DNA from: Parcubacteria group bacterium
Lineage (GTDB): Bacteria; Patescibacteriota; Patescibacteriia; Buchananbacterales; UBA6539
Reading direction: 5' to 3'
Length of the DNA: 64,000 nt
NCBI GenBank assembly: GCA_002687175.1
Contig: NYZP01000001.1
Location: 839 to 64,838 of the forward strand
Each line of letters opens with the position of its first letter. Within the stretch, counting starts at the first letter, position 1. The position numbers and the translations under genes are program-made. The notes under the pieces are model-generated. The model ran no database searches and was not told the origin of the DNA. It saw nothing but the letters and a program-made list of their open reading frames with translations. Positions 1 through 64,000 of this stretch are shown here, one piece after another.

Positions 1-1
1 G

Positions 2-304
2 AAACTTGATTACCAGACAAATACTTTAATCGTTTCTAGTAATCGTGATGACCAAACCTTATTAACTAAAAAATTTGATCTTAAAGATATAAATTGGTTA
101 AAGGGGTCAAAACCAACTACCTCAGAAAAGTTTGGTGTTAAAATTCGTTACCAAGCTAAAACTATACCGTGCACCATGAAAAATAATGAAGTAACTTTAA
201 AAATCGCTGAGCGCGCTATAATGCCGGGTCAGTCAGCCGTTTTTTATAAAAATGAACAGTTGCTAGGTGGTGGAATAATTGCTAAAATTAAATCAACATC
301 ATAA
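2..304 (+). CDS. mnmA: tRNA 2-thiouridine synthase MnmA, C-terminal fragment (5' end outside window)
   Basis: Frame is open from the window start to TAA at 302-304. Translation ends ...AERAIMPGQSAVFYKNEQLLGGGIIAKIKSTS, matching the conserved MnmA C-terminal motif (TPGQSAVFY..CLGGGII). Confidence 0.75.
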   Translation, partial: KLDYQTNTLIVSSNRDDQTLLTKKFDLKDINWLKGSKPTTSEKFGVKIRYQAKTIPCTMKNNEVTLKIAERAIMPGQSAVFYKNEQLLGGGIIAKIKSTS

Positions 305-339
305 AATAACGCTGCACACTACAACTTGGAGGACATACC

Positions 340-825
340 ATGAGCAACCGAAAAATTGTTGGTTACATTAGCATGGTACCGTTAATATTACTGCTCCTGG
401 TAACCAACGGGTGTGTGACCGCCCAAAAACCAATTGAATCTGACGATTCGGCCAGAATTATAATTAACGATGTTGAGTGGGGTGTGACCATTGGCCGAAC
501 AAATGGTGTGATGAGAGTGTTAGTTATAAAAGATGACCAAGAGGAAGAGTTCAATTCTAACATGCACCACATATTGATAACGTCCTCTAAAAAAGATGGG
601 CTGACCGACATTGCCTTCCTTGATCAATTGGTTATTAGGACGCCTGATGGATCGATATTTTCCAGAATTGCCGAGTGCCGAGTAAATGATAAAATGTTGG
701 CCATACTAGCCAGAGGTTTTATTATAGTTCACGAAATCTATATAATTCCTCAACAACCACACCAAGAAGAAGACCGCCAACACCAAAACGACCGCTGGCT
801 AATGTGTTTACAGCAACTCAACTGA
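340..825 (+). CDS. hypothetical lipoprotein (signal peptide with lipobox LVTNGC)
   Basis: ORF-track entry of 161 aa. The N-terminal hydrophobic segment ends in a lipobox-like LVTNGC. No recognisable domain. Confidence 0.4.
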   Translation: MSNRKIVGYISMVPLILLLLVTNGCVTAQKPIESDDSARIIINDVEWGVTIGRTNGVMRVLVIKDDQEEEFNSNMHHILITSSKKDGLTDIAFLDQLVIRTPDGSIFSRIAECRVNDKMLAILARGFIIVHEIYIIPQQPHQEEDRQHQNDRWLMCLQQLN

Positions 826-872
826 GTTGCTTTTTTCTTGATAAAATTAGCTTTTTATAATAGAATCTCTAT

Positions 873-2633
873 ATGACTTCAGAAGAATTAAAAAAGAAAT
901 ATCTTGAATTTTTTAAGTCCAAGGGACATGCAATCATTCCCTCGGCTTCTTTGATTCCGGAAAATGATCCAACGGTTTTGTTTACTACCGCTGGAATGCA
1001 CCCTCTGGTGCCTTATTTAATGGGTGGCTCTCACCCAGAAGGTACGCGAATTACTGATGTCCAAAAATGTATTCGGACCAGTGATATTGATGAAGTTGGT
1101 GACAGTTGGCATTTAACCTTCTTTGAGATGCTTGGTAACTGGTCATTGGGGGACTACTTCAAAAAAGAAGCAATTGAATGGTCATGGGAATTTTTAACAT
1201 CCAACAACTGGCTAGGTTTAGATCCAAAGCGAATCTCCGTGTCCGTATTTTCTGGAGATGAAAATAATAATATACCATTTGATCAAGAAGCATATGATAT
1301 TTGGAAATCAATCGGTATGCCACCAGAGAGAATCTATCGTTATGACAAAAAAGAAAACTGGTGGGGACCAGCCGGTAAAACCGGACCGTGTGGACCAGAT
1401 ACTGAAATGTATTATGACTCGGGAAAGGCAGAATGTGCTAATTGCACCACCGAAGGTCCGGCTTGTGACTGTGGTAAATTTGCTGAAATATGGAATAACG
1501 TATTTATGCAATACAATAAAACAGCTGAAGGAAAATTTGAAGAGTTATCCCAAAAAAATGTTGATACCGGGATGGGAGTTGAAAGAACAGTTGCTATTTT
1601 AAATGGTCAAAAAAATACTTATGACACGGACCTATTTGAAGAAATTATTAAAAAAATAAAAGAACTGGCCACTAACAGTAATCAGACATCGGAAAGAATA
1701 ATTGCTGATCATCTTCGAGCAGCAACTTTTATACTTGGTGATGAGAAAGGTATTTCACCTTCAAATTTAGATCAAGGTTATGTGTTGCGTCGATTAATCC
1801 GTCGAGCAATCCGTCATGGCAAAATTATAGGTATTACTAAGCCATTTAGTTTTATTATTGCTGAAGTTATTATTCAAAAATATAAAGATGATTATAATGA
1901 ACTACAAAAAAATAAAGATTTTATAATAGAGCAGCTTGTGCAAGAAGAAGAAAAATTTTCTAAAACATTAGCCAGGGGATTGAAGGAATTTGAAAAAATT
2001 TCAGAACATGATGTTACAGGCCACGACGCTTTTATTCTATTCACCACTTATGGTCTACCAATTGAAATTGTTAAAGATTTGGCAAAAGAAAATGATATTT
2101 CGGTTGATGAGAAAAATTTTGAAATTGAATTAAAAAAACATCAAAATCTTTCACGAACGGCAACAGCCGGAAAATTTAAAGGAGGGTTAGCTGACCATTC
2201 TGAAGAAACAACTCGTTTACATACTACTAATCATCTAACCCTTCAAGCCTTGAGAACGGTTCTAGGTGACCACGTAAATCAAAAAGGTTCAAATATTACT
2301 AAAGATCGGCTAAGGTTTGATTTTTCTCATGATAAAAAAATGACGCCAGAAGAAATTCAAAAAGTTGAAGACATAGTAAATGAACAAATTAATAATAAAC
2401 TCGATGTTTCTTTTGAAGAAATGTCTGTCGAAGAAGCTAAGGAAAAAAATGCTATTGGGGTATTTGAACATAAATATGCTGATAAAGTGAAGGTTTATAA
2501 AATGGGAGATTTTTCACTGGAGATTTGTGGTGGACCTCATGTTAAAAATACCGGGGAATTGGGTCATTTTAAAATCACAAAAGAAGAGTCAAGTTCAGCC
2601 GGTGTCAGAAGAATTAAAGCAGTTTTACAATAG
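873..2633 (+). CDS. alaS: alanine--tRNA ligase, short form (catalytic + tRNA-recognition + editing-like region, lacks C-Ala domain)
   Basis: N-terminal FTTAGM and GGSHPEG motifs, the HTTNHL editing-site-like motif and the ICGGPHV zinc motif are present. Only 586 aa, against about 870 aa for canonical AlaRS. Confidence 0.85.
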   Translation: MTSEELKKKYLEFFKSKGHAIIPSASLIPENDPTVLFTTAGMHPLVPYLMGGSHPEGTRITDVQKCIRTSDIDEVGDSWHLTFFEMLGNWSLGDYFKKEAIEWSWEFLTSNNWLGLDPKRISVSVFSGDENNNIPFDQEAYDIWKSIGMPPERIYRYDKKENWWGPAGKTGPCGPDTEMYYDSGKAECANCTTEGPACDCGKFAEIWNNVFMQYNKTAEGKFEELSQKNVDTGMGVERTVAILNGQKNTYDTDLFEEIIKKIKELATNSNQTSERIIADHLRAATFILGDEKGISPSNLDQGYVLRRLIRRAIRHGKIIGITKPFSFIIAEVIIQKYKDDYNELQKNKDFIIEQLVQEEEKFSKTLARGLKEFEKISEHDVTGHDAFILFTTYGLPIEIVKDLAKENDISVDEKNFEIELKKHQNLSRTATAGKFKGGLADHSEETTRLHTTNHLTLQALRTVLGDHVNQKGSNITKDRLRFDFSHDKKMTPEEIQKVEDIVNEQINNKLDVSFEEMSVEEAKEKNAIGVFEHKYADKVKVYKMGDFSLEICGGPHVKNTGELGHFKITKEESSSAGVRRIKAVLQ

Positions 2634-2691
2634 TAATTAAAATCTACTTAATTTAGCTATTTTTTGAGTGATAACTAGCACCTTAATTTTA

Positions 2692-2759
2692 TTGACACAA
2701 TTGACTTTTTAGTATATTATAATTCTATTATTGACAAATTAACCAATTAAACGTATTGT
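2692..2759 (+). promoter_or_regulatory. candidate sigma70-like promoters upstream of the infA-r-protein operon
   Basis: TTGACA (2692-2697), a 17-nt spacer, then TATTAT. A second TTGACA (2731-2736), a 17-nt spacer, then TATTGT. The surrounding region is AT-rich and non-coding. Confidence 0.3.
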
Positions 2760-2872
2760 AAAATAGGTGAAAATATATAAAAAATATATAAAATTTGTCT
2801 TATTTTAAATAAAATTCTGGCCTTGAGCATATAATCATCAGAAGCTGCCAAGAATTTTATTTTTTCTAAAAT

Positions 2873-3109
2873 ATGGTCAAAAACAAAAAAACTATTCCTA
2901 GTAAAGAATTCATAGAAGTCGACGGAGAGATTCAAGAACTCCTGCCGGCTGCTACCTTTAAAGTTAAATTAGAGAATGGTGTTGATATTTTAGCTCACCT
3001 TTCTGGCAAAATGAGAATGTATAAAATCAGAATATTGCCTGGGGACAAAGTAAAAATTCAAATGACTCCATACGACTTAACAAAAGGTAGAATAACTTAT
3101 CGTTATTAA
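2873..3109 (+). CDS. infA: translation initiation factor IF-1
   Basis: 78 aa, S1-like fold. The sequence ...[40 protein letters not shown] is typical IF-1. Confidence 0.9.
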
Positions 3110-3114
3110 TTATT

Positions 3115-3228
3115 ATGAAAGTAAGATCTTCGGTAAAAAAAATGTGCAAAGACTGTAGAGTGATCCGTCGAAATAAACGTGTTCACATTATTTGTAAAAA
3201 TCCGAGGCATCGACAACGTCAAGGCTAA
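3115..3228 (+). CDS. rpmJ: 50S ribosomal protein L36
   Basis: 37-aa ORF, absent from the ORF track (under 60 aa): [37 protein letters not shown]. It has the C-x2-C...C...H zinc ribbon and the canonical position between infA and rpsM. Confidence 0.85.
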
Positions 3229-3231
3229 ATT

Positions 3232-3621
3232 ATGGCTAGAATCGCAGGAATTACATTACCTAAAGATAAACGAATAGCAGTAGGTTTAACCTACATTTTT
3301 GGTATAGGCCGTAACGTCTCTACAAATATTTTAAAAAAGGCTGATGTCAGTCCAGACATTAGAGTAAAAGATTTAACAGAAGATCAAACAAATAAACTAC
3401 GAGAAATTATTGAAAAAGATCATAAGGTTGAAGGGGAACTAAAAAGAGAAGTTTTATTGAATGTTAAAAGGCTAAAAGAAATTTCCAGTTACCGTGGTTC
3501 TAGACATTCGAAGAAACTACCAGTACGTGGTCAACGCACTAAAACTAACAATCGAACTGCCCGAGGTAACGTTCGTAAAACCATGGGTTCTGGCCGTAAA
3601 GGGGCTGCACAGAAAACTTAA
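3232..3621 (+). CDS. rpsM: 30S ribosomal protein S13
   Basis: [28 protein letters not shown]... is the S13 signature. Its position between rpmJ and rpsK fits. Confidence 0.9.
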
Positions 3622-3633
3622 AAATTTATACTT

Positions 3634-4107
3634 ATGGGACAAAAAAAAATTACAAACATGTCTGAAACTCCTGATCAGAAAAAAGAAGAAAAAAAGTCCG
3701 CCGAAGGCGGAGAAGTTAAATCTATACCAAAGGCAAAATCAAAGAAAAAAATTAAACGCCAGGTTTCTGCTGGTAGCGCTTATATTCAGGCGACTTATAA
3801 TAATACAATTATTACTTTTACTGATGCTCAGGGTAATGCCTTAGCTCAATGTTCAGCTGGACAAGTTGGTTTTAAGGGACCAAAAAAATCTACCCCTTAT
3901 GCTGCCGGAATTATTGTGGCCCAGGCAGTGGAGAAAGTAAAACCTTACGGACTTAAAGAAGTTAGTGTTTTCGTTAGGGGAGTTGGTGGTGGACGGGAAG
4001 CGGCTATACGGTCTTTAAATGCCAACGGTATTAATGTTTTAGGCATTAAAGATGTAACTCCTATTCCTCATAATGGTTGCCGTCCTAAAAAACCACGCCG
4101 AGTTTAA
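3634..4107 (+). CDS. rpsK: 30S ribosomal protein S11 (with Lys-rich N-terminal extension)
   Basis: The conserved S11 core is present ([34 protein letters not shown]...). The first ~40 aa are K/E-rich. Confidence 0.9.
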
Positions 4108-4122
4108 TTAAAAAAATAATCT

Positions 4123-4725
4123 ATGCAAGTAAAAACCCATAAAGCCTGTAGACGTTACGGAATAAAATTATGCCAATCTGACAAATGTCCGGTTATTCGT
4201 CGTAACTATAAACCAGGAATTCACGGTAATAAGCGAAGGGCCAGACTCACAGAATATGGTACTCAATTAAGAGAAAAACAGATCGCCAAAGCAATTTATG
4301 GGATTATGGAAAAACAATTTAGTAATTATTATAAAAAAGCAATTAACCAGCAAGGAGATACCGGGGAGTTAATACAGCAAATGCTAGAAACTAGATTAGA
4401 CAATGCTGTCTTCCGAGCCGGCTTTGCTAAAACTCGACCACTGGCCAGACAGCTAGTTAGTCATGGAATGTTCTTAGTAAACGGTAAAAAAACAAATATT
4501 CCTTCCTATCAAATCAAAGTAAAAGACGAAATATCAATTAAGCCGGAAAAAATAAAGGCTAAAGTATTTAACGATCTGGAAAAAAAACTGGAAAAATACA
4601 CCGTACCATCTTGGCTAGCCCTTGATCTAAAAAATAATAAGGTAAAAGTGGTTTCCCGACCTTCTGGTAATGAACTGGAGAATACTTTTAATCCACGTTT
4701 AATCGTAGAATTTTATTCAAAATAA
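4123..4725 (+). CDS. rpsD: 30S ribosomal protein S4
   Basis: N-terminal zinc-finger-like C-x..C region and S4 domain (LETRLDNAVFRAGFAKTRPLARQLVSHGMFLVNGKK). Confidence 0.9.
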   Translation: MQVKTHKACRRYGIKLCQSDKCPVIRRNYKPGIHGNKRRARLTEYGTQLREKQIAKAIYGIMEKQFSNYYKKAINQQGDTGELIQQMLETRLDNAVFRAGFAKTRPLARQLVSHGMFLVNGKKTNIPSYQIKVKDEISIKPEKIKAKVFNDLEKKLEKYTVPSWLALDLKNNKVKVVSRPSGNELENTFNPRLIVEFYSK

Positions 4726-4768
4726 TTAGACAAAAACTTTTTAATAATTACAAGTTAAAAACAATTAT

Positions 4769-5638
4769 ATGGAAAACATTTCCTTGCCATCAAAAATTGA
4801 AATTGAAGACACTAAAGAAAAAAATAAGTCTATTATAACAATACAGCCATGTCACCCCGGCTATGGCACTACTCTGGGTAATGCCTTACGTCGAGTATTA
4901 CTTTCTTCTTTACCTGGCGGAGCAGTAATTGCTTTTAAAATTGAAGGAGCCAGTCATGAATTTTCCGGTATTGATAACGTTAAAGAGGATCTGGTGGAAA
5001 TTTCGTTAAATTTAAAACAACTTGGGTTAAATATTTTCACCGATGAACCAGTAAAATTAGAATTAAAAGCAAAAGGTGAAAAAAAAGTTACAGCCAAAGA
5101 TATTAAAACTACCAGTGATGTAGAGGTTATTAATAGCGATCTAGTGATTGCTACTTTAACCAGTAAAACTGCTGAGCTAAACATGGAAATTTTAGTTACT
5201 AAGGGCCGGGGATATGTCCCCTCAGAATCTAGGGAAAAAGAAGATTTGGAAGTGGGGATGATCGTAATCGACTCAATTTTTACCCCAATTAAAAACGTTG
5301 GTTTTCAAATTGAAAATGTCCGAGTGGGAAAAATGACCAACTACGAAAATCTAATTATAACTATTGAGACTGATGGTACTATTACTCCCAAGGAAGCTTT
5401 GAATCAATCAGTAAAAATTTTATTAGATCATTTTAATCAAATTGCTGTTGAGACTAAAGATGGTGCTAAGCCAAAAAAAGTTAAAAAGGAAAATACCAAA
5501 AAAACTGAAGAAGAACCAGAAGAAAAAACTGAAGCCAAAGAAAAAGAAGTCAAAAAAGCTAAAAAGGCTGACAAGGCCCTAGAAGAAGATAAAGAAGACA
5601 CTGAAGAAACTAAAGAAGAAAAACCTAAAAAAGCTTAA
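4769..5638 (+). CDS. rpoA: DNA-directed RNA polymerase alpha subunit, NTD only with K/E-rich low-complexity tail (no alpha-CTD)
   Basis: The alpha NTD is conserved (GYGTTLGNALRRVLLSSLPGGAVIAFKIEGASHEF...). The last ~55 aa are KKVKKENTKKTEEEPEEKTEAKEKEVKK...EEKPKKA, with no helix-hairpin-helix CTD. Confidence 0.85.
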   Translation: MENISLPSKIEIEDTKEKNKSIITIQPCHPGYGTTLGNALRRVLLSSLPGGAVIAFKIEGASHEFSGIDNVKEDLVEISLNLKQLGLNIFTDEPVKLELKAKGEKKVTAKDIKTTSDVEVINSDLVIATLTSKTAELNMEILVTKGRGYVPSESREKEDLEVGMIVIDSIFTPIKNVGFQIENVRVGKMTNYENLIITIETDGTITPKEALNQSVKILLDHFNQIAVETKDGAKPKKVKKENTKKTEEEPEEKTEAKEKEVKKAKKADKALEEDKEDTEETKEEKPKKA

Positions 5639-5646
5639 ATCCAAAT

Positions 5647-5997
5647 ATGCGTCATCAGAAAAAAGGAACAATCTTAGGCCGTAAAAAAGCACCACGGAAA
5701 GCCCTGATGCGTAGTTTAGCTACATCAATTATAATCTACGAAAAAGTTAAAACTACTAAAGCTAAGGCCAAGGCGGTTAAACCAGTAGTCGAGAAATTAG
5801 TTACTACTGCTAAAAAGAATGACTTAACGGCGAGACGTAAATTATTAGAAGTTCTGTACCATAAAAAAGCGGTTAATAAAGCTTTAGAAGTATTAGGACC
5901 ACGTTATAAAAACCGCAAGGGTGGCTACACTAGAATTATTAATTTAGAAAACCGTCAAGGCGATAATGCTGAAATGGTTCAGATTGAATTTGTATAA
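5647..5997 (+). CDS. rplQ: 50S ribosomal protein L17
   Basis: MRHQKKGTILGRKKAPRKALMRSLATS...GGYTRIINLENRQGDNAEMVQIEFV is L17-like. Confidence 0.9.
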   Translation: MRHQKKGTILGRKKAPRKALMRSLATSIIIYEKVKTTKAKAKAVKPVVEKLVTTAKKNDLTARRKLLEVLYHKKAVNKALEVLGPRYKNRKGGYTRIINLENRQGDNAEMVQIEFV

Positions 5998-5999
5998 AT

Positions 6000-6449
6000 A
6001 TGGCCGAACATAAAAAATCTACAACCAAAAATATAGAAAAGGCTATTAAAGATAGTTCCCAGAAAGCGAAGAAAAAAAAGGTATCCAAAAAACCAGTTAT
6101 TGATCGGCAGACTCACAAGATAGATGCCAAGGGAAAAATTTTAGGCCGTTTATCAACCGAGGTGGCTCAAATTTTAAGAGGTAAAAATAAACCAAGTTTT
6201 TTACCACATGTTGATGGTGGTGATTTCGTAGTTATTTCTAATGCTTCACAAATTAAAACAACTGGGAAAAAGATGGAACAAAAAGTTTATTACCATTACT
6301 CTGGTTATCCAGGTGGACTTAAAGAAAAAAAGATGTCAAAAGTTTTCGAGAAGGATCCAGGTGAAATTATTAAACGAGCCGTTTGGAATATGTTACCAAA
6401 GAATAAACTTCGCACAAGTATGATAAAACGTTTAATTGTTAAAAACTAG
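6000..6449 (+). CDS. rplM: 50S ribosomal protein L13
   Basis: KIDAKGKILGRLSTEVAQILRGKNKPSFLPHVDGGDFVVISNASQIKTTGKK...YYHYSGYPGGL is the L13 signature. Confidence 0.9.
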   Translation: MAEHKKSTTKNIEKAIKDSSQKAKKKKVSKKPVIDRQTHKIDAKGKILGRLSTEVAQILRGKNKPSFLPHVDGGDFVVISNASQIKTTGKKMEQKVYYHYSGYPGGLKEKKMSKVFEKDPGEIIKRAVWNMLPKNKLRTSMIKRLIVKN

Positions 6450-6450
6450 C

Positions 6451-6990
6451 ATGCCAATTACTAAAAAAACAGCTACCGCTGAAAAAAAATCGGAACAAAA
6501 GACTATCAAAAAACCAACTGCTAAAAAAACGGTTAAGAAGTCTGAAAAAAAAGTTACCACTAAAGACACTGACGACGACGAACCAAAAAAACGTGTTCGA
6601 CACAGTTATTTGTTTGCTGTTGGACGAAGAAAAAAAGCTGTTGCCCGCGTTAGACTTTTTAAAAAAGGTAATGGTGAAATTTTAGTAAATGATAAGCAAA
6701 TTAAAGAATACTTTCCAACTTTTGAACTTAGAGAAATTGTTGTTGAGCCCCTGGAAAAAATCGGCGCCATCAAAGATTTTAATTTCTCAATTAAAGTCCG
6801 TGGTGGTGGTTCTCGCGGCCAAGCCGAAGCGGTGAGACATGGTATTGCCCGAAGTCTGGTAGTTTATGATAAAGATTTAAGAACAACTTTAAAACCATAC
6901 GGTTTTCTAAAACGTGATCCTCGTCGTAAAGAACGAAAAAAACCTGGTTTAAAACGTGCTCGTCGAGCACCTCAGTGGGCTAAACGATAG
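6451..6990 (+). CDS. rpsI: 30S ribosomal protein S9 with ~50-aa Lys-rich N-terminal extension
   Basis: The S9 core is present (GRRKKAVARVRLFKKGNGEILVN...GGGSRGQAEAVRHGIARSL...KRDPRRKERKK). The ATG at 6451 follows the rplM stop. The track ORF starts at 6436. Confidence 0.85.
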   Translation: MPITKKTATAEKKSEQKTIKKPTAKKTVKKSEKKVTTKDTDDDEPKKRVRHSYLFAVGRRKKAVARVRLFKKGNGEILVNDKQIKEYFPTFELREIVVEPLEKIGAIKDFNFSIKVRGGGSRGQAEAVRHGIARSLVVYDKDLRTTLKPYGFLKRDPRRKERKKPGLKRARRAPQWAKR

Positions 6991-7008
6991 AGTTACAAAA
7001 ATACTAAA

Positions 7009-7031
7009 GCGGGGCAAACGCCCCGTTTTTT
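7009..7031 (+). terminator. rho-independent terminator after rpsI
   Basis: GCGGGGC-AAAC-GCCCCG stem-loop followed by TTTTTT. Confidence 0.7.
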
Positions 7032-7046
7032 GATATAATAAAATAT

Positions 7047-7592: not shown

Positions 7593-7624
7593 TTACTTTA
7601 ATTTTGTAAACCTTCTACTAACCT

Positions 7625-8782: not shown

Positions 8783-8832
8783 GTTAAATTAGATTATAAA
8801 TTTTTACAATTAATAAGAAAGGATAACATAAT

Positions 8833-9429: not shown

Positions 9430-9451
9430 CTAAAAGTTAATTAGTTAAATT

Positions 9452-10015: not shown

Positions 10016-10022
10016 CTGAACC

Positions 10023-10778: not shown

Positions 10779-10839
10779 CATAAAGATACTAATTTTTTAA
10801 GTTGTCTGATTAGTATTTTTTTGTTAGAATAAACTGACT

Positions 10840-51335: not shown

Positions 51336-51419
51336 ATGTTGATCCTGTCACTTGATATTTAGCTAAAGACTTTATTCATCTGTAAACATTTTACCATTTC
51401 TGAAAACCATGTCAATAAA

Positions 51420-54637: not shown

Positions 54638-54734
54638 AAAATTAGCAGAATTACAACTGCTAACAAACCTACTGAAAGTCTACTTTTTCTAAAAAATTTT
54701 AACATAATAAATCAAATTATTTGATTTATTAAAA

Positions 54735-55793: not shown

Positions 55794-55800
55794 TTCTTCT

Positions 55801-57045
55801 TTAAAGTTTTTTCAAAACTTGCTCCAAGCTAAGGAGCTCTGCTTTTTTCTCCCCCCGAGGTTTAAATTCAATTTTATTTTGAGTTTTTTGAGAAACTACT
55901 AACCGGTAAGGAATGCCTATTAAATCGGCTTCAGCAAACTTAGCACCAGCCGAAATATCACGATCATCGTATAAAACTTCAACTCCCGCCTTGGTTAGTT
56001 GCTGATAAATTTTATCAGCTTTTAGGTTTTCTTTCAAGGATACTAGGTGAACCTGGAAAGGAGCAATGCTGGTTGGCCAAATAATACCAGTTTTATCATT
56101 TGAAGACTCAACAACTGTTGCCATTAAACGACCAACACCAATGCCATAGCAACCCATCATAATTGGTTTTGCTTTACCTTTTTGGTCAACAAAATTAGCT
56201 TTCATTTTATGACTATAGATATCATCTAATTTAAAAATATGACCAGCCTCGATACCCTTTTTTGTTTCAAGATTTGTTTTACATTCTGGACAGTCCTTTT
56301 GCTTATCAAATACTTCCACATTACCAGCCCAACCACATTCCCGACAAACTAATATATTATCTTCGCCGGAATCAGCGATCACCATAAATTCATGACACTC
56401 ATTGCCGCCAATCGATCCTGAGCTTGCTTCCACCATCACTGATTCTACACCACAACGTTGATAAATATTTTTATAGGCTTGAGTAACTTTTTTATAAAAA
56501 GCTGCTAAGTCTTTAGCGTCGGTATGAAAACTGTATAAATCTTTCATCACAAATTCACGAACTCTTAACAGTCCGCCGGTGGCGCGCATTTCATTACGAA
56601 ACTTATTTTGAATCTGGTATAAAGAAAAAGGTAAATCCTTGTAAGAATTAATCCGTCGCCTGATTAAATCAGTAATCACTTCTTCATGAGTCGGTCCTAG
56701 CCCTAACTCTTTACCATGACGATCTTTAACCACAAATAACGGCGGGTCAATTGTTTTCCAACGACCAGTTTCGGTCCATAAACTCTTTGGTATTAAGGTT
56801 GGCATGATGAACTCTTGAGCACCTAAAGAATTCATCTCTTCGCGAATAATATTTTCAATTTTTTTATGAACCCGAAAACCCAAAGGCAACAGTGTGTAAA
56901 CCCCAGCCGCTAACTGATCGATAAAATCAGCCCTTAGTAAAAGCTGATGGGATATGGTTACCGCATCTTTTGGTAAATTTTTTAAAGTTTTAGCAAAAAG
57001 TTTAGATTGCTTCATAATTTTTATTAACCACGGAGTCTTTCCCAA
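55801..57045 (-). CDS. proS: proline--tRNA ligase, compact form without INS editing domain
   Basis: The N-terminus (SKLFAKTLKNLPKDAVTISHQLLLRADFIDQLAAGVYTLLPLGFRV) is the ProRS signature. Class II motifs 2 and 3 are present. 414 aa. Confidence 0.75.
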   Translation of the reverse strand: MGKTPWLIKIMKQSKLFAKTLKNLPKDAVTISHQLLLRADFIDQLAAGVYTLLPLGFRVHKKIENIIREEMNSLGAQEFIMPTLIPKSLWTETGRWKTIDPPLFVVKDRHGKELGLGPTHEEVITDLIRRRINSYKDLPFSLYQIQNKFRNEMRATGGLLRVREFVMKDLYSFHTDAKDLAAFYKKVTQAYKNIYQRCGVESVMVEASSGSIGGNECHEFMVIADSGEDNILVCRECGWAGNVEVFDKQKDCPECKTNLETKKGIEAGHIFKLDDIYSHKMKANFVDQKGKAKPIMMGCYGIGVGRLMATVVESSNDKTGIIWPTSIAPFQVHLVSLKENLKADKIYQQLTKAGVEVLYDDRDISAGAKFAEADLIGIPYRLVVSQKTQNKIEFKPRGEKKAELLSLEQVLKKL

Positions 57046-57398
57046 AAACCTTTTTTATCAGATTGGTCTGGCGCGCCTTGAGCCTGATTATCCATTTGAT
57101 TTTTAACCAAGCCTTCTAGCTTCGCTCCTTCTTCTGCTACTTGCCCACCATCATACTCCGCATTATGGGCATGAGCCCCGGCATAGCTGGGCTTTTTTTG
57201 ATCTAAATGTAAATTAATTGAGGTTTTATTATCTTTATCTTGTTCAACATAAGCATGAAAACGAGGATAAAAGTCTCTTGATAATCTTTTGACATAACTG
57301 GTTTGGCCCGTGTTAGGATCATTAAATTCAGCATAACCGGCTCGACGCATAAAGGTTCGTAAATTCTCCTTAAACTCAAACGGTAGTGCTATTTTCAT
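57024..57398 (-). CDS. hypothetical protein (124 aa)
   Basis: ORF-track entry. Its stop overlaps the proS start by 22 nt. No recognisable motif. Confidence 0.3.
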   Translation of the reverse strand: MKIALPFEFKENLRTFMRRAGYAEFNDPNTGQTSYVKRLSRDFYPRFHAYVEQDKDNKTSINLHLDQKKPSYAGAHAHNAEYDGGQVAEEGAKLEGLVKNQMDNQAQGAPDQSDKKGFWERLRG

Positions 57399-57399
57399 A

Positions 57400-58569
57400 C
57401 TACAACAGACCTGATATCTTGTCCCAAAAACCTAAAAAGCCGTTGGTAATTCTGGATATATCTCTAAATGTCACAACTAACACCAGAAGCATCAGTAAGG
57501 CAAAACCAATATTATGAGCCGCTGTTTCGATTTTCGGTTTAATCGATTTTCCACGAACTTTCTCGATCAATAAAAACATCACCCGGCCACCATCCAAAGC
57601 AGGAATTGGCAAATAATTAATGACCGCAATAATTACCGAAAGCACTGCGGTAAACTGAATTAGATACAAAAATCCTAATTGTAAGGCATCACCAACTAAC
57701 GAAGCAATACCAACTGGTCCATAGACTTCACCAATTAATTCCTGAGAAATTAATAAACTTTTTATCACCAGATAAAAACCTAGGAATATATTACCAACTA
57801 ATTTTAAAGTTTCCCAAACTCCAAAAGCTGGAGCTAGATACCAAGGATAAGAAACAATACCTATTTCAATTAAGGCCACGCCCATGCCACCACGTTCAGT
57901 TTCCTCCAAAATTTCCGGTATCACTGTTGTCTCAATAATGGCCTCATCACGTTTAATTTGTAAACTAACCTCCTGACCAACTTTGGAATCAAAATAGTTC
58001 TGAAAGTCGGTAATTTTGGTCAGCACTTGACCATCAACTTGCACAATGGCATCAGCTACTTCAATACCGGCCGTTGCTGCTGGGGAGTCTGGTAGCACTT
58101 CCATGATTCTGATATTAACGTCACTAACTCTAGCCACGGCTGGAATATTATCCTCGTCAATTGCTTGAGGTGAACCAATGGTTAAACCAATAGTTAGCAG
58201 TACGGCGGCTAAAATAATATTCATGCTAACACCAGCCGAAAGAATCCAAATACGTTGCCAGATACTTTTATTACCAAAACTGTCAGGATCATTGGCATCA
58301 CCACCCTCTTCACCTTTAATTTTTACAAAACCACCTAAGGGAATCCAGTTAAGCGACCAAATAGTTTTTGGCGCTTCTTTGCTTTTTAAACCAACTGGTT
58401 TCCACTTACCATTGTCATCTTTGTAAAACCCCAGAGCTCGTGGCGGTAAACCAAGCCCAAACTCTTCAACTTTTACCCCCGCCCGTCTGGCAGTAACAAA
58501 ATGGCCTAGTTCATGAACTAGGACAATCAGACCTAAAATTAAAAAAAATACAATAATTGTTAGTAACAT
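57400..58569 (-). CDS. rseP: site-2 protease RseP (M50 family zinc metalloprotease with PDZ)
   Basis: HELGHF zinc motif in TM1 (LVHELGHFVTARRAG), a PDZ-like middle region and the C-terminal LDGG motif (PIPALDGGRVMF). Confidence 0.85.
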   Translation of the reverse strand: MLLTIIVFFLILGLIVLVHELGHFVTARRAGVKVEEFGLGLPPRALGFYKDDNGKWKPVGLKSKEAPKTIWSLNWIPLGGFVKIKGEEGGDANDPDSFGNKSIWQRIWILSAGVSMNIILAAVLLTIGLTIGSPQAIDEDNIPAVARVSDVNIRIMEVLPDSPAATAGIEVADAIVQVDGQVLTKITDFQNYFDSKVGQEVSLQIKRDEAIIETTVIPEILEETERGGMGVALIEIGIVSYPWYLAPAFGVWETLKLVGNIFLGFYLVIKSLLISQELIGEVYGPVGIASLVGDALQLGFLYLIQFTAVLSVIIAVINYLPIPALDGGRVMFLLIEKVRGKSIKPKIETAAHNIGFALLMLLVLVVTFRDISRITNGFLGFWDKISGLL

Positions 58570-58571
58570 AA

Positions 58572-59126
58572 TTAAATTGTCATTATTTCTTTTTCTTTAG
58601 CATCGCCTAACGCTTTAATTTTATCGTTATACTCTTTAATTAACTCATCTAATTGTTTGATTGAATCGTACTTATCATCCTCGGTAATTTCGTTAGCTTT
58701 TTCCTGCTTGACAACTTCGTCTTTTACTCTGTCACGAATTTGACGAATAACAATTCTGGATTTCTCCATTTTTTCACCAACTGACTTAGTCAGTTCTTTA
58801 CGACTCTCTTCGGTCAAGGCCGGAATAGTAAGGCGAATTACTGCTCCCTCATTAACCGGACTAATGCCAATATTAGCATTAATAATGGCCTTTTCAACCT
58901 CTTTAGACAGTGTTTTATCCCACGGTTGAATTAGTAATGTTCGGGCTTCGGGCACGGTTACCGAAGCTAACTGCTTCATTGGCGTTTTAGTACCGTAAGA
59001 ATCTACTAGAATATTTTCCACCATCATTGGGTTGGCTCGACCAACCCTTAAGGTGGTTAACTCTTCCTTTAAATGTTCCAAGCTCTTTTCAAAGTCTGGT
59101 TTACTGTTATCAATTAATGTACCCAT
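58572..59126 (-). CDS. frr: ribosome recycling factor
   Basis: 184 aa. MMVENILVDSYGTKTPMKQLASVTVPEARTLLIQPWD... is the RRF fold signature. Confidence 0.9.
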   Translation of the reverse strand: MGTLIDNSKPDFEKSLEHLKEELTTLRVGRANPMMVENILVDSYGTKTPMKQLASVTVPEARTLLIQPWDKTLSKEVEKAIINANIGISPVNEGAVIRLTIPALTEESRKELTKSVGEKMEKSRIVIRQIRDRVKDEVVKQEKANEITEDDKYDSIKQLDELIKEYNDKIKALGDAKEKEIMTI

Positions 59127-59132
59127 AATAAA

Positions 59133-60185
59133 TTATCTTCCTAAATTAGAAAATCCCATATACAAAATATTTGGATCGTTGGAGTCAACCTGCATGTAAG
59201 TAGCTACGGCATTGCTGGGTAATCTCTTGGTGATCCAATTTTGACCACCATCAGTGGTTTTATAAAATGTAGAAGCCGTGGCATAATAAATTTCTTTATT
59301 GTTTTGAGGATTAATTGCCACCGAAAAAATATCAGCAGTGGCTGGCGGGGTGATTAAATTAAGGGCATTCCAGGTGGCTCCACCGTTATTACTTTTAATC
59401 AAACCGTATTTGGCAACCAACATTAAACCATCTGACTGACTGGCATCAAAAATTAAATTTCGATATTCCATTGAACCGGAGTACTGTTTCAAACCATCAT
59501 TAATATCGATCCAACTAATACCAGAATTGGTTGATTTAAAAATTCCATTGTTATTGGTGGCTAAATAAAGTACTCGAGTATCATTTGGATTAATTAAAAT
59601 TTTAGTTATTGGATTGTTAAGTCGATGGATTACCTGCCAGGTGGTGCCACCATTGGTGCTTTTAAGGATGTCGCCGGCGGAATTACCAGCATAAACGATT
59701 AAGCTATTAAAAAAATCAACAGCCAAGGCGGTCACATTCTTGTCAGCCCTGGTATCAATATAAATTTCCGCCCAGGTCCGACTACAGTCAACTGATTTTA
59801 AAACGGTGTTAGTAAAGGTGGCATAGATAACACATTTATTTTTGGCATCAATGGCCACTGCTTCAATCCGACCATTGCCTACCTGTTTGGCTTTTTGCCA
59901 ACTGTCACCGCCATCATAAGTAAATAACAAACCGTCAGTCTCGGTAGCTAAATAAATAGCCCGATTATCCTGAGGGTCAAAAGTTAAGTTTATAACATTA
60001 ACACCAGAGATAGTTCCAGTGCCGCCAGAATGTAAAAATAAACTTTTGGTAATCCAGGTATTACCCCGATCAAATGATTTAAAAACTCCGGAGACCGAAG
60101 GCGTATTAGACCCACCAAAACTGATGGTACAGCCAGTTAAAAAAATGGAAGCTAAGATTAAAGTTTTAAATGATAATTTTTTCAT
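59133..60185 (-). CDS. lipoprotein with BNR/Asp-box (sialidase-like) beta-propeller repeats
   Basis: Lipobox LTGC. At least 6 S-x-D-x-G-x-(T/S)-W repeats (SFDRGNTW, TYDGGDSW, STNGGTTW, STNSGISW, SNNGGATW, TTDGGQNW). Confidence 0.6.
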   Translation of the reverse strand: MKKLSFKTLILASIFLTGCTISFGGSNTPSVSGVFKSFDRGNTWITKSLFLHSGGTGTISGVNVINLTFDPQDNRAIYLATETDGLLFTYDGGDSWQKAKQVGNGRIEAVAIDAKNKCVIYATFTNTVLKSVDCSRTWAEIYIDTRADKNVTALAVDFFNSLIVYAGNSAGDILKSTNGGTTWQVIHRLNNPITKILINPNDTRVLYLATNNNGIFKSTNSGISWIDINDGLKQYSGSMEYRNLIFDASQSDGLMLVAKYGLIKSNNGGATWNALNLITPPATADIFSVAINPQNNKEIYYATASTFYKTTDGGQNWITKRLPSNAVATYMQVDSNDPNILYMGFSNLGR

Positions 60186-60190
60186 AATTT

Positions 60191-61234
60191 TTAAAAATTT
60201 AAAACTAAATTTTCTAAGACTAATTTAGGATTAACGTTGGCGTCCAAATAACGCCTACTTGAATTAAGATTAATAATAGTGCTGGCTAAACTTTTAGGAC
60301 TAAATTTGCTGGCCAGCTCCTTCAAATCTGTTAAGAAGCGATGATTACTGATTAAATTTTCGTTGTTTAATTTAATCAGTACCAAATCTCTTAGCACTTT
60401 ACTCCAAATATTTAAACTGTCTTTAATTGAATTAATATCTTTTAAATCAACGACTTCACCTAACATTTTAAGTCGAGTATTGGCTTTACTACCTAATAAA
60501 GTGACAAACTGTTTGGCTTGATCCTGAAAATCTAGGTACAACTCATTGTCAGTAGCATAATTAATAGCCATGCCTGGTTGACCAAAAGATAAATTAGCTA
60601 GTACAGTGGCTTTTTTTCGGTCAACTTTCAAACTTCTCAAATGATCAAAAATATCTTCATACTTAACTGGCAAAAATTTTAAAACCTGGCAACGTGACGC
60701 TACGGTCTTGGGTATTTTGGCTAAATTGGCGGTTAATAAGATCAGAACTGTCTTAGCGGTGGGCTCTTCTAGGAGTTTCAGTAAAGCATTAGCCGCTTCT
60801 AAACTTAAAGTTTCGGCTTCATCAATTATGGCAATCTTGTATGAGTTTAAAAATGAATGCAGGCTCAGTTTACTTTGAATCTGACGAATCTGCTCAATAC
60901 TGATATTTTTCTTTAACTTATCAGTTTTGTCATTTACTTCCCGGCTAAGCCAATAAACGTCGGGATGAATACCATTTTTAATTTGTTTACATCCATTGCA
61001 GCTACCACAGGGAATTTTCTCATTATCCTCATTATCTTTAGCTAAATTCTGACAAATTAAACTGTCGGTGAAACTTTTGGCCACCGTCGCTTTGCCAAGA
61101 TGTGGCGTACCAACAAATAAATAAGCATGAGCTATGCTGTTATTAGTCAATGATCTCTGTAAATAATTAACAATATTTAAATGGCCGACAATCGGCCAAT
61201 TAAAACGGCTATTCTCCTCTGCATCTTTAGACAT
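60191..61234 (-). CDS. holB: DNA polymerase III delta' subunit (AAA+ clamp-loader)
   Basis: HAYLFVGTPHLGKAT P-loop-like region, zinc module CGSCNGCKQI and an SRC-like motif (TVASRCQV). 347 aa fits delta' better than tau. Confidence 0.7.
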   Translation of the reverse strand: MSKDAEENSRFNWPIVGHLNIVNYLQRSLTNNSIAHAYLFVGTPHLGKATVAKSFTDSLICQNLAKDNEDNEKIPCGSCNGCKQIKNGIHPDVYWLSREVNDKTDKLKKNISIEQIRQIQSKLSLHSFLNSYKIAIIDEAETLSLEAANALLKLLEEPTAKTVLILLTANLAKIPKTVASRCQVLKFLPVKYEDIFDHLRSLKVDRKKATVLANLSFGQPGMAINYATDNELYLDFQDQAKQFVTLLGSKANTRLKMLGEVVDLKDINSIKDSLNIWSKVLRDLVLIKLNNENLISNHRFLTDLKELASKFSPKSLASTIINLNSSRRYLDANVNPKLVLENLVLNF

Positions 61235-61703: not shown

Positions 61704-62111
61704 CTAGTTGTCAGTTCTGTATTCCTCCCTGTCTATGACAAAGTGACTTTTACGTTGATTGGTGACTTCTCTCGCCATTTTTCGAATCACTTCATTTTCG
61801 TCTTGAGTAGCAGCTGCCAGTACCTCTTGATGCCAGTATTCCATCAACTGAGTTGCTGCCGCAACAGCAGGGTCATCAGAATCTGAGCTGTTGTCAAGAC
61901 TGATGTCAATTCTTTTGGACATCACTCTAACGGCCATTTGCCGAAAGTAAGCAATCTCCTCCAAATTAAAAGCAACCTGAATAAACTCCAGTTCCTCGGC
62001 ACTGGTTGCGTGATCCTTGAGGATTATCTTCCTTGGTTGGTGGCTTTCCAAGAAAACAGCCACCAGAAGACAAACTATTACCAATACCCCATAGGCTTTG
62101 GAAAACTTCAT
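61704..62111 (-). CDS. hypothetical membrane-anchored protein (135 aa from SD-supported start)
   Basis: SD AAGGAG lies 7 nt before the ATG at 62111 (MKFSKAYGVLVIVCLLVAVFL...). The track ORF extends to 62147. About 45% GC. Confidence 0.4.
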   Translation of the reverse strand: MKFSKAYGVLVIVCLLVAVFLESHQPRKIILKDHATSAEELEFIQVAFNLEEIAYFRQMAVRVMSKRIDISLDNSSDSDDPAVAAATQLMEYWHQEVLAAATQDENEVIRKMAREVTNQRKSHFVIDREEYRTDN

Positions 62112-62192
62112 GGTGGATCTCCTTTGGCTGTTGTTTATAAATGTCAATGTTCTTTACCTCAACTTATCTTAACTAATATTTTTTGTCAAAGA

Positions 62193-62215
62193 AAAAAACC
62201 GCTTAGCTATGCTAT
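62193..62215 (-). terminator. terminator after HEAT-repeat gene
   Basis: On the - strand, CCGCATAGC-ata-GCTAAGCGG followed by TTTTTTTCTTTG. Confidence 0.5.
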
Positions 62216-62245
62216 GCGGCCTGTGAATTGGACTGACCAACTAAC

Positions 62246-63334
62246 TTATAAATCGACGGTCACCGAATCTTCTACTTCGGCATTAATAGCATCTTCTTCG
62301 GTATTATGACTCTCTTCTTCAGAAGATACTAAAGTGACTCGATTGGACAATGCTTCAACCACTCCCTCGCGAACAATTTCAGATTCGTCAGAGAGGGCGG
62401 TTACTAATGCTCGATCAACTTTGGGACTTGGGTCTGGTAAGGCTGCCAGTAATTCAACTGCCTCCTCACGAATCCCTGAATAGCCATGAGACAAGGCGCT
62501 AATTAAAGCAGCTTCAACTACCAGACCTGATCTACCCACTAATGCTTCTATAGCATTATGCTGATTTACCCAACCTGAGTTATCAGTAAAAACTCTGATC
62601 AAGTATGCTTCAACTTCCGGACCGGAAAGTTTGCTTAAAGCCTTGATGGCATCATAATGAATATTTCCATCGTTATCATAGGCTGACTTGATCAATACTG
62701 CATACAAATCATCGTCTGGCAACATACCAGCCAATGCCTGCCTGGCTGCTTCACGAACATATTGATCTTCATCAGTAGTGGCCACAATTAAGGCCACTGA
62801 AATCTCCTCACCTGATCGTTGGCATAAAACATTAATTGCCGCTAGGCGTAAACCCTTGCTGGTAGCTGTAGAGAACTCGATTAACTCCTCATCAGTCACC
62901 TCTGTCAGTCTTTCTTCCAATGCTAGAGCGGCTGTTGCGCTCACCGTGTAACTTTCAGAATTTGCCACTTCAGTCAGCATGACGAAGTCAAAAGTAGGCA
63001 TTAATTCCTTTAAAGACTCAGCGGCAGCCCACTTAACATCAAAATCATCATCATTACTGGCTTTGATAAGTGCCCTGATGATTTGATCATTTCTTTCTTC
63101 CTCGGTCATCTCGACAAATGATACAGTGTCAACTTCTTCGGTCGCAACCGCCTCGCTATTTTCGCTGTCGACTTCAGTAGCCCCGTCTCCTGATATTTCT
63201 TCGGCGATCGTTGGTTTAATCACCACTTCGCTTTTCCAATCGTCGATAATTGGAAGAGCAACAAAAATTAAGAATATCAGTGCTCCAACACAAGCAATAC
63301 ACAACTTACCAGGATGATCAAATATTTTCCTCAT
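62246..63334 (-). CDS. membrane-anchored HEAT/PBS-lyase-like repeat protein
   Basis: SD AAGGAG lies 7 nt before the ATG. N-terminal TM. Repeated (V/I)RE(A/G)A..AL helices (VREAARQALAGM, IREEAVELLAAL, VREGVVEALSN). About 45% GC. Confidence 0.55.
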   Translation of the reverse strand: MRKIFDHPGKLCIACVGALIFLIFVALPIIDDWKSEVVIKPTIAEEISGDGATEVDSENSEAVATEEVDTVSFVEMTEEERNDQIIRALIKASNDDDFDVKWAAAESLKELMPTFDFVMLTEVANSESYTVSATAALALEERLTEVTDEELIEFSTATSKGLRLAAINVLCQRSGEEISVALIVATTDEDQYVREAARQALAGMLPDDDLYAVLIKSAYDNDGNIHYDAIKALSKLSGPEVEAYLIRVFTDNSGWVNQHNAIEALVGRSGLVVEAALISALSHGYSGIREEAVELLAALPDPSPKVDRALVTALSDESEIVREGVVEALSNRVTLVSSEEESHNTEEDAINAEVEDSVTVDL

Positions 63335-63413
63335 GACATTACTCCTTCTGTGCCTCCTGGATTTCTGAACCTAAAAGGTTCGGTCAAAGATCAAACAAAG
63401 TCCAACATCCTAA

Positions 63414-64000
63414 TTACCACAGTTCTTTAGCCTCCTGCCAAATATTTGGATAACCCTGTTGGTCAAGCCAGTACCAATACTCTACTCCCCAAAGGTAAAC
63501 TTCGGCGAAACCAGCTTGTTCAACATAGTTTATATTATCTTTAAATCTTTGTAAAGTAAATGATCGTTCCTGTTCTTCCAGAGTTAATTCAATCATTGGT
63601 TTATCTAAAGTCCAGGGTTCCATTTGTAGTTCAATCACAATCACTTTGTCTAGATTCTTATGAAAAAATTTGGTCAAGTCGGCCTTGTAACGATAGGCCG
63701 CTGGTGGTAGAAAAAAATAGTCCCAAAACCCCAGATATTTATTCCAAACTACTCGGTATAAAGTGATACCTAAATTATCAGCCAAGCTGGCCGCTCCTTG
63801 CCAATGATTCAGCTCGCCACTGTCAGTCACCACAATTGGCCTAGTGTTATCGAGTGAGCGCACTAATTCTATTTCCTGAGCTAAAAACTTTTTGTCGGGT
63901 AAGGGGCATTCACCAAATAAAGCAAACAGAGGTTCATTCTCTACTTGCCAAGACTTTATAACATCGTTACTTTGGTATCGTTCAATAACTGCCCGAATAT
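63414..64000 (-). CDS. glycoside hydrolase clan GH-A-like protein, C-terminal part (N-terminus beyond window end)
   Basis: The - strand frame is open to the window edge. SWQVENEP (the GH-A acid/base NEP motif) is encoded at 63920-63943. The track ORF starts at the internal GTG at 63863. Confidence 0.45.
   Translation of the reverse strand, partial: IRAVIERYQSNDVIKSWQVENEPLFALFGECPLPDKKFLAQEIELVRSLDNTRPIVVTDSGELNHWQGAASLADNLGITLYRVVWNKYLGFWDYFFLPPAAYRYKADLTKFFHKNLDKVIVIELQMEPWTLDKPMIELTLEEQERSFTLQRFKDNINYVEQAGFAEVYLWGVEYWYWLDQQGYPNIWQEAKELW

Follow-up and report, generated by a model that had tools for sequence, protein, structure and literature searches.

Two styles of translation start that track base composition in a 64-kb stretch of a marine Parcubacteria genome

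We analyzed a 64,000-nt stretch of a marine Parcubacteria metagenome-assembled genome (MAG; assembly GCA_002687175.1, contig NYZP01000001.1, positions 839 to 64,838; GC content 36.6%), here called the window, and found that its genes fall into two styles of translation start. Most genes, including ribosomal protein and cell-shape genes, lack a recognizable Shine–Dalgarno sequence (SD), whereas a smaller group of GC-richer genes carries a strong one, and this division is real and statistically solid in the window. We think it somewhat probable that two initiation modes coexist in one cell: an SD-independent default and working SDs that serve a flexible gene pool of the candidate phyla radiation (CPR).

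Our gene list was built from open reading frames (ORFs) and compared with public gene predictions for the same DNA, and the 21 nt 5' of each of its 72 starts were scored against the canonical 16S tail ACCUCCUUA, which stands in for the organism's own. The resulting pairing energies are bimodal: 15 starts lie at or below -8.3 kcal/mol, whereas the remaining 57 lie above -6.6, mostly near 0. Strong SDs precede the forward-strand genes that start at 340, 14946, 20276, 21094, 24431, 24612, 24833, 25018 and 40288 and the reverse-strand genes at 27876-28061, 28058-28636, 31344-31652, 46179-49883, 61704-62111 and 62246-63334. A preliminary description of this DNA had drawn up a similar list, which overlooked 340-825 and 27876-28061; its claim that the core genes alaS, infA, rpsD, rpoA and msrA have no SD is borne out by their upstream sequences. 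The distance from SD to start is 5-13 nt, mostly 6-8, and three of the SDs read AAGGAGGTG, which pairs with the canonical 16S tail past the core.

One may ask whether these are chance SD-like motifs in purine- or GC-richer upstream sequence, aided by SD-guided start choice, or products of assembly chimeras. AGGAGG is not over-represented in the window (22 observed, 18.8 expected), several small ORFs and starts were picked with the SD in view, and choosing the best of several starts yields many false SDs in related genomes. Against this, only 2.2% of internal ATGs reach -8 kcal/mol, so that 15 of 72 corresponds to a binomial p of 5e-11, and the excess holds for ORFs of at least 100 aa alone (p = 3e-4). 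The spacing is canonical, and the SD is conserved in independent homologues. An exact protein look-up also locates the window on the 242-kb Tara Oceans scaffold TARA_SAMEA2619974_METAG-scaffold_6 (from about position 20,590) and matches it to contigs of GCA_002434675.1 and of a CMI53_-tagged MAG, and the junctions of the cassettes discussed below are identical across several independent assemblies (Tara, ENA, NCBI, Logan). We therefore regard an artefact as very improbable.

The two groups also differ in composition. Mean GC is 0.44 in SD-led genes and 0.36 in the others (p = 4e-7), and GC at third codon positions (GC3) is 0.425 versus 0.288 (p = 2e-7); because this is the largest gap among the three codon positions, composition itself differs and not amino-acid content alone. 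Start regions (-30 to +33) fold more stably in SD-led genes, at -9.2 versus -5.4 kcal/mol (p = 4e-6), a difference that partly follows from GC content. Pfam domains are missing from 12 of the 15 SD-led genes and from 9 of the 57 others (Fisher p = 6e-6), and many SD-led proteins look secreted or membrane-bound when their N-termini are judged by eye. Accessory status is not sufficient for an SD, and composition matters, because the AT-rich insertions or orphans at 41769-43118, 50032-50547, 34656-35036 and 25303-25545 are SD-less; their mean GC is 0.34, versus 0.44 in the SD-led set (p = 0.006).

SD-less starts across related genomes

A scan with the seryl-tRNA synthetase SerRS, limited to one genome per species, returned relatives at 65-80% identity. 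The named ones are Buchanan-, Magasanik-, Komeili-, Falkow- and Kuenenbacteria, which we take to be the "Parcubacteria 1"/ABY1 part of CPR, and by this protein the organism groups with Buchanan-, Magasanik- and Komeilibacteria. In 80 related loci (1.4 Mb, locus GC 25-54%), an SD at the first ATG of long ORFs is rare, at about the rate of internal ATGs. The proportion of SD-led ORFs, set against a control anti-motif, is 2.6% versus 2.3% at 45-100 aa, 5.0% versus 2.3% at 100-200 aa and 3.8% versus 2.5% at 200 aa and above. In these relatives, SD-led ORFs shorter than 200 aa are elevated in GC by 0.04 to 0.06, versus 0.01 to 0.025 for other ORFs (p = 1.5e-7 at 45-100 aa; p = 8e-4 at 100-200 aa). 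Judged by these starts, SD-less initiation characterizes the clade as a whole. A Kuenenbacteria locus (L045) that had seemed to be an SD-using exception proved to be an artefact of best-of-several start choice, its "SDs" being internal G-rich sites, and a pattern scan for an SD followed by an ORF was discarded as noise from in-frame internal sites.

What these genes offer in place of an SD can be read from 756 unambiguous starts, defined as those whose first start codon is an ATG no more than 8 codons from the upstream stop. G is depleted to 4-10% at positions -12 to -1, versus 14% farther upstream, and A reaches 50-61% at -11 and at -8 to -3. The strongest signal, outweighing every upstream position, is T at -1, present in 70% of the starts, with G there in only 4%. 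Where the upstream gap is 60 nt or more (555 genes), hexamers resembling a -10 box form a sharp peak 6 nt 5' of the ATG (41 versus a background of about 9), as do perfect TATAAT boxes (21 versus about 2), a peak that points to leaderless mRNAs. In the window, msrA, 15194, 26391-27752 and 31859 have a -10 box at leaderless spacing, TATAAT ends 6-11 nt 5' of the ATG of alaS, msrA and 15194, and many other conserved genes lie in tight or overlapping operons.

Two long conserved blocks in the window display the SD-less style. The first (873-19962, forward strand) contains alaS, infA, rpsM-rpsK-rpsD-rpoA-rplQ-rplM-rpsI, msrA and sodA together with genes that Pfam names as redoxin/DsbD genes, a thiamine pyrophosphate enzyme, an aldehyde dehydrogenase and glycosyltransferases. 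Its upstream energies range from -5.4 to +1.8 kcal/mol, and its sole interruption is the SD-led ORF at 14946. The second is an SD-less operon block (51420-61234, reverse strand) of PBP2, mreD, mreC, mreB, an aminoacyl-tRNA synthetase gene, a 124-aa protein, an M50 protease, frr, a BNR protein and holB, and is syntenic in five relatives (L004, L005, L009, L013 and L014).

Insertions, conserved families and a peptidase module

Six relatives (L004, L005, L009, L010, L013 and L014) keep the gene order gltX .. ftsQ-ddl-alr-serS .. lysS-greA-PBP2-mreD-mreC-mreB, and those with the kept order lack 31344-31652, 40288-40440, a GC-rich island at 38540-39020 and an entire block that holds a lipoprotein gene and an M23 peptidase gene. 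The gap between PBP2 and greA, 111-521 nt in relatives, is 5.4 kb in the window. Besides the lipoprotein gene and the M23/CARDB/LamG gene, this space is occupied by a 45-nt direct repeat and a transposase fragment of the IS200 Y1 type (50950-51072, reverse strand), which scores 25.9 bits with Pfam Y1_Tnp, where the cut-off is 23. The repeat copies, 80% identical, lie at 50596-50640 and 51373-51417, just downstream of PBP2, and bracket the transposase fragment. Likewise, just 8-39 nt separate serS from alr in L009, L010 and L013, versus 349 nt in the window, where a 50-aa ORF is enclosed between them. Signs of mobility are confined to the M23 block, with no tRNA in the window and no repeats around the other cassettes.

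The preliminary description had proposed that the SD-led genes are a recently acquired or mobile pool, and had named an SD-using donor or host as a possible source. The first part holds in that the SD-led genes are a flexible, inserted set that relatives lack, with the IS200 fragment and repeat adjoining the M23 block. The second part would make the high GC and the SDs undecayed leftovers of recent transfer from SD-using organisms outside CPR, such as a host or phage, with no role for the SD itself. Such transfer would agree with the insertions relative to syntenic relatives, the raised GC3 and the adjacent IS200 fragment, the predominance of orphans, the 52-58% GC of 20130-20900, 38540-39020 and 40288-40440, and the frame decay seen in one gene.

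The families whose history can be traced tell against it. The secreted 1,234-aa protein encoded at 46179-49883 (reverse strand; GC 0.44, GC3 0.40), with Pfam M23 peptidase, CARDB and LamG domains, is led by AGGAGG at 49890-49895, 6 nt 5' of its ATG. Its M23/CARDB homologues, at 29-38% identity, include two named ones from Buchananbacteria and Uhrbacteria, and the others lie on contigs with CPR-like neighbours. In all seven independent cases (the window, L091/L094/L095, L092, L093, L096, L098/L099 and L100), AGGAG, GGAGG or AAGGA stands about 6-9 nt 5' of the signal-peptide ATG and the neighbouring genes are SD-less; in L091 the recorded TTG start cuts the gene short, and an ATG 45 nt upstream has both SD and signal peptide. 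The 61-aa zinc-ribbon family (27876-28061) is SD-led in four of four members, counting the window and the homologues in L018, L008 and L039, and in L037 and L038 the orthologue pairs likewise carry SDs. The SD persists in both families at protein identities of 29-51% and, because the surrounding upstream sequence is not conserved, it is the SD itself that is maintained, which in turn implies a working anti-SD in these organisms.

Homologues of both families were found only in CPR-type contexts, which gives no support to the proposed origin from an SD-using donor for the genes that can be traced. Searches for an outside source were likewise negative: viral contigs held no close relatives of three SD-led proteins and PHROG gave no match to the SD-led genes, results on which we reject a phage origin, and no donor lineage outside CPR was found for any SD-led gene. 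The HEAT protein (62246-63334) has no orthologue, showing only repeat-level matches to giant HEAT proteins, and the 192-aa protein (28058-28636) has no relatives in metagenome contigs. For the orphans, especially the pieces at 52-58% GC, an outside origin is possible; as an explanation of the set as a whole, recent transfer seems to us unlikely. The other suggestion of the preliminary description, that SDs are reserved for a particular gene set, fits the conservation data.

A further argument comes from the gene pair around the peptidase. In six of six modules (in the window at 46179-50547, reverse strand, and in L091/L094, L092, L096, L098 and L100), the M23/CARDB gene is preceded by a 166-210-aa lipoprotein gene with the motif EIDTSxWKTYRNEEYGFEFKYP. 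In the window this upstream partner (50032-50547, reverse strand) has a weak PsbP_2 match, a GC of 0.26 and a GC3 of 0.16, and is SD-less. In all six, the lipoprotein gene is SD-less with GC3 0.16-0.39, and the peptidase gene is SD-led with GC3 0.40-0.61, a mean difference of +0.22 (paired t p = 1e-4). Such a module cannot be the outcome of import from an SD-using donor and later decay, because its co-inherited neighbours keep opposite composition and opposite initiation signals across deep divergence. L098 contains three tandem modules, the second with a C39-like peptidase plus CARDB.

The lipoprotein and peptidase genes are separated by a conserved intergenic element of two hairpins, after which comes a GTTCnTTGACAA motif (49906-50018, reverse strand). 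Alignment and RNAalifold predict 27 pairs, and compensatory changes are seen in 12 of these. In a search of 1.47 Mb with a covariance model, R1, the element turned up 8 times, each time inside a lipoprotein-peptidase module and never in the serS-centred loci; besides the window copy, these are L092 7855-7986, L093 1145-1273, L096 603-742, L097 958-1099 and L098 5428-5560, 7896-8004 and 10524-10634. The setting is constant, with a PsbP_2-like lipoprotein gene and then an SD-led secreted gene, which is an M23- or C39-type peptidase where identified. The element has no Rfam match. The 3' half of hairpin 1 resembles the 5' half of hairpin 2, and an attenuator-like alternative pairing of the two is conceivable. 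Reading GTTCnTTGACAA as an ordinary -35 box was rejected, because it lies 14-85 nt from the ATG and is not accompanied by a -10 box.

These conserved pairs bear on two further ideas. In the first, ribosomes would normally pass over SDs, as in Bacteroidia, and the SDs would mark a dedicated regulon, translated conditionally (for example, on host contact) by a ribosome subpopulation with an exposed anti-SD. The conservation of SDs in specific families of a clade that otherwise starts without them is compatible with this, as are the seeming enrichment in secreted and membrane proteins (by eye, from N-termini), the pairing of an SD-less lipoprotein with an SD-led peptidase across a conserved structured element, and the precedent of Bacteroidia, with a sequestered anti-SD and an SD-led rpsU (PMC7797042, PMC9976891, PMC13000453). 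The SD-led set, however, has no common function and no common upstream motif other than the SD, and compensation for structured 5' ends accounts for the same data with fewer assumptions; we judge a regulon to be quite unlikely. The second idea is bolder: in this group of Parcubacteria the SD, instead of being a general signal for ribosome binding, would single out genes that are translated apart from the rest. These would encode secreted peptidases as well as small membrane or zinc-ribbon proteins, probably host-related, with the lipoprotein-peptidase pair forming a differentially translated module of effector and partner, possibly for immunity. High synonymous GC and structured leaders would bar these genes from the default route, so that their output would hang on access to the anti-SD. 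We offer it tentatively and think it improbable as a whole, although the lipoprotein and peptidase may indeed be an effector and its partner.

Two initiation routes in one cell

If two modes operate side by side, the default would be SD-independent. First genes of operons would often be leaderless, with a -10 box ending about 6 nt 5' of the ATG; other conserved genes would present an A/U-rich, G-depleted and weakly folded start with U at -1, and genes inside tight operons may also use translational coupling. The flexible set would comprise small cassettes between conserved genes, with higher GC mainly at synonymous sites and stabler start folds, and its SDs would pair with a standard CCUCC anti-SD, whose function we infer. 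Selection would retain the SD because GC-richer 5' ends are otherwise poor substrates for the default route: genes that cannot offer an open start would be expressed only if SD-led. The flexible set would be largely a pool internal to CPR and not a fresh import from an SD-using phylum. For the high GC3, candidate causes are selection on mRNA structure, a GC bias linked to recombination and frequent exchange among the genes of a GC-richer flexible pool.

Several observations weigh against this account. GC alone does not force an SD, because several GC-elevated genes are SD-less: 33277-34059 (GC 0.43), PBP2 (0.41), greA, the aldehyde dehydrogenase gene and, just beyond the window end, an MreB-like gene with a GC of 0.45. 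The preliminary description went too far in giving an SD to every compositionally deviant gene, as these genes and the 58%-GC island at 38540-39020, which has no SD-led ORF, depart from the rule; what stands is that the 15 strong SDs track GC and GC3. The folding difference is in part a trivial consequence of GC content, some small ORFs were recognized partly through their SD, and the excess of SD-led ORFs in relatives is small, with nothing convincing at 200 aa and above. Most SD-led genes are orphans with an untraceable history, and the account offers no reason for the lasting GC3 excess of the M23 genes. The organism's 16S 3' end is absent from all loci, with no 16S 3' motif in the 90 that were fetched; rpsU, rpsR and rpsF are likewise missing from the window and from every fetched locus. 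Roughly half of Parcubacteria reportedly lack CCUCCU (PMC9297842).

With regard to the last point, anti-SD loss in Parcubacteria is reported mainly for a subgroup that lacks uL1 (Tsurumaki et al. 2022, PMC9297842), in a study that does not give SD usage by gene class. Our organism belongs to the same superphylum and shares a lessened reliance on SD pairing, but it groups with Buchanan-, Magasanik- and Komeilibacteria, and the conserved SDs argue that its anti-SD was retained; judging from its relatives, it probably stands outside the uL1-lacking, anti-SD-less subgroup. A 16S tail of ...CACCUCCUUA-3', if true of this organism, would support working SDs. The prfB frameshift site, a proxy for a working anti-SD, was not found in the loci.

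The pattern is a variant of those SD-poor lineages that keep a few SD-led genes. In Bacteroidia such as Flavobacterium johnsoniae and Prevotella, the literature describes an anti-SD that is present but sequestered by bS21/bS18/bS6, A-rich upstream regions and an SD on rpsU (PMC7797042, PMC9976891, PMC13000453, PMC3155529). As there, ordinary genes are SD-less throughout the lineage, starts are A-rich, G-poor and weakly structured, and a few genes retain a strong canonical SD. The differences are that our organism belongs to CPR/Parcubacteria, that its main signals are U at -1 and a leaderless -10 box and not upstream adenines, and that its SD-led set consists of about 15 GC-elevated inserted accessory genes in 64 kb instead of one autoregulated ribosomal gene. 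Sequestration of the anti-SD is known in Bacteroidia, whereas here the likeness is one of start-site sequences.

Actinobacteria and Deinococcus are bacteria rich in leaderless mRNAs. The window and its relatives resemble them in the short, constant spacing between a -10 box and the start codon of first operon genes, but here leaderless mRNAs are suggested by sequence, apparently concern a minority of first genes and would exist beside SD-less leadered or coupled genes and an SD-led class. Mycobacterium is one example of such bacteria (cited in PMC12641261).

Horizontally acquired genes often stand out as genomic islets of atypical composition, which then ameliorates toward that of the host. 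The SD-led genes are similar in their atypical GC and GC3, their absence from syntenic relatives, a nearby transposase remnant and their mostly orphan status. They differ in that no donor was found, in that their composition offset and SD persist across deeply diverged CPR genomes in the traceable families, and in that, unlike what import and amelioration would leave, an SD-led gene shares a module with an AT-rich partner.

According to Scharff et al. (2011), SD-less mRNAs reportedly need an open start region, and an SD permits moderately structured leaders. The genes described here agree with this principle, with SD-less genes folding weakly at the start and SD-led ones more stably. The difference is that a single genome here appears to use both solutions, one for its conserved genes and the other for its flexible ones. 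The same contrast is drawn between SD-less mRNAs, which need an unstructured start region, and initiation on structured 5' untranslated regions, which an SD allows (PMC3155529).

The searchable literature has almost nothing on translation start in CPR bacteria beyond anti-SD loss in some Parcubacteria. If the pattern extends genome-wide, a large CPR group would start its conserved genes in leaderless or SD-less fashion and retain a working SD route for a flexible, partly secreted set. Gene callers with a single start model would then mis-call or miss SD-led genes, as the omissions in the Tara predictions (below) and the truncated NCBI M23 homologue illustrate. The combination of SD presence and GC3 could serve as a cheap marker for flexible, possibly host-interaction genes in uncultured organisms, and the clade could provide a second independent lineage besides Bacteroidia in which to ask why the anti-SD persists when most genes ignore the SD. 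The contrast of about 0.2 in GC3 between adjacent co-inherited genes is unusual and calls for an explanation, be it mRNA-structure selection, recombination-linked GC bias or frequent cassette replacement.

Individual SD-led genes and other features of the window

The first SD-led gene (340-825, forward strand; GC 0.42) encodes a 161-aa orphan with a lipoprotein-like N-terminus and no Pfam, PHROG or NCBIfam match; its GGAGG lies at 328-332, 7 nt 5' of the ATG. A 55-aa CxxC zinc-ribbon ORF with a weak DnaJ_CXXCXGXG match (14946-15113, forward strand) has AGGAGG at 14932-14937, 8 nt 5' of the ATG.

A 55%-GC island at 20130-20900 (forward strand) holds a 141-aa ORF (20276-20701) with a signal-peptide-like N-terminus, a GGAGG at 20260 and no homologues outside its own protein cluster. 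Its start is ambiguous between 20276, the position described earlier, and 20258, which the NCBI member of the same cluster uses. The ORF is itself 56% GC and contains a 26-nt direct repeat (20561-20586 and 20672-20697); a 1-nt insertion just past the second copy ends the frame, and GC-rich sequence runs on to about 20900, features that suggest a longer gene in decay. The Tara gene predictions place an antisense ORF at 20269-20859, which is probably spurious.

The 84-aa CxxC ORF at 21094-21348 (forward strand) has GGAGGGAG upstream and a terminator at 21350-21377. It had been counted among the compositionally deviant SD genes, and although the SD-like sequence is there, its GC of 0.35 is native. 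A promoter match (TTGACA-18-GAGAAT at 21059-21088) ends 5 nt 5' of the ATG, and for that reason the gene may be leaderless and its SD coincidental.

Five small hydrophobic peptides form an operon at 24386-25250 on the forward strand (24431-24601, 24612-24701, 24713-24811, 24833-25003 and 25018-25197; GC 0.37-0.42), with a promoter-like site at 24341-24369; peptide 1 scores above the Pfam threshold for DUF2798. All five had been described as SD-led, which is true of four, the one at 24713 carrying AAGGA only. On the reverse strand, a two-gene SD-led operon (27876-28636; GC 0.47) encodes the 192-aa orphan, led by AGGAGG at 28645-28650, and the 61-aa zinc-ribbon protein, led by GGAGG. The orphan had been listed with a start at 28642; its strong SD is confirmed, 8 nt 5' of the ATG, and the true start is the ATG at 28636. 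Farther along the same strand, a 102-aa coiled-coil orphan (31344-31652; GC 0.45) has AGGGAG, a promoter-like site at 31724-31696 and a terminator-like one at 31357-31339.

The 50-aa ORF at 40288-40440 (forward strand; GC 0.52) has the SD AAGGAGGTG, its own TTGACA/TATATT promoter and a hairpin terminator, and lies between alr and serS on the strand opposite to theirs. Both this ORF and the five-peptide operon (24386-25250) are omitted from the Tara gene predictions. In L007 and L008 an SD-led, GC-elevated gene of 136-144 aa lies directly downstream of serS on the opposite strand, and because it occupies the same site as the window's 50-aa ORF, the position beside serS suggests an insertion hot spot.

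Nearby, the 58%-GC island between ddl and alr (38540-39020) is open in several frames. At the same site, L005, L010 and L013 have GC-rich but unalignable sequence and L009 has none. We dropped its reading as a BatA/vWA-type gene fragment, for which a protein search returned the self-hit only, and as a structured RNA, given the lack of an Rfam match, fold z-scores of about -2 for either strand, and relatives in which nothing aligns with it. Its 3' end (GGTGGGGCGGATTTATTTTTT) is similar to the terminator after the 40288 ORF (GGTGGGTCGGATTTATTTTT).

Two SD-led genes on the reverse strand (61704-63334; GC 0.43-0.44), each led by AAGGAG, encode a 135-aa protein with an N-terminal hydrophobic anchor (start 62111) and the 362-aa HEAT-repeat protein (start 63334), and have the same neighbours in 7 independent assemblies. 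The HEAT gene has an extra AGGAGG 18 nt upstream. A second SD-like motif (AGGAGG or GAGGAGGTG), 18-45 nt 5' of the start and additional to the proximal SD, is present here (63340-63358) and at the M23 genes of L092 and L096. About 2.2 kb beyond the HEAT gene, four independent assemblies (L084, L086, L087 and L088) end at one shared point, which suggests a repeat or a strain-variable region.

Rfam searches of the window and 7 related loci gave nothing at gathering score and no match at E <= 1 that mattered. The cumulative GC skew reaches its maximum at 33000-35700, where gene orientation turns from the forward to the reverse strand and where 35036-35680 is non-coding with 27% GC; this region may be a replication terminus, and no dif-like site was found at the strand switch.

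Finally, two CPR genomes contain an SD-led gene for a Toluene_X/FadL-type beta-barrel (L010, reverse strand, about 404 aa; L091 5577-6842 / L094 3259-4530), the recorded L091 start of which is apparently wrong. The gene is 10-14 GC points above its locus, and an outer-membrane-type protein is unexpected in CPR.

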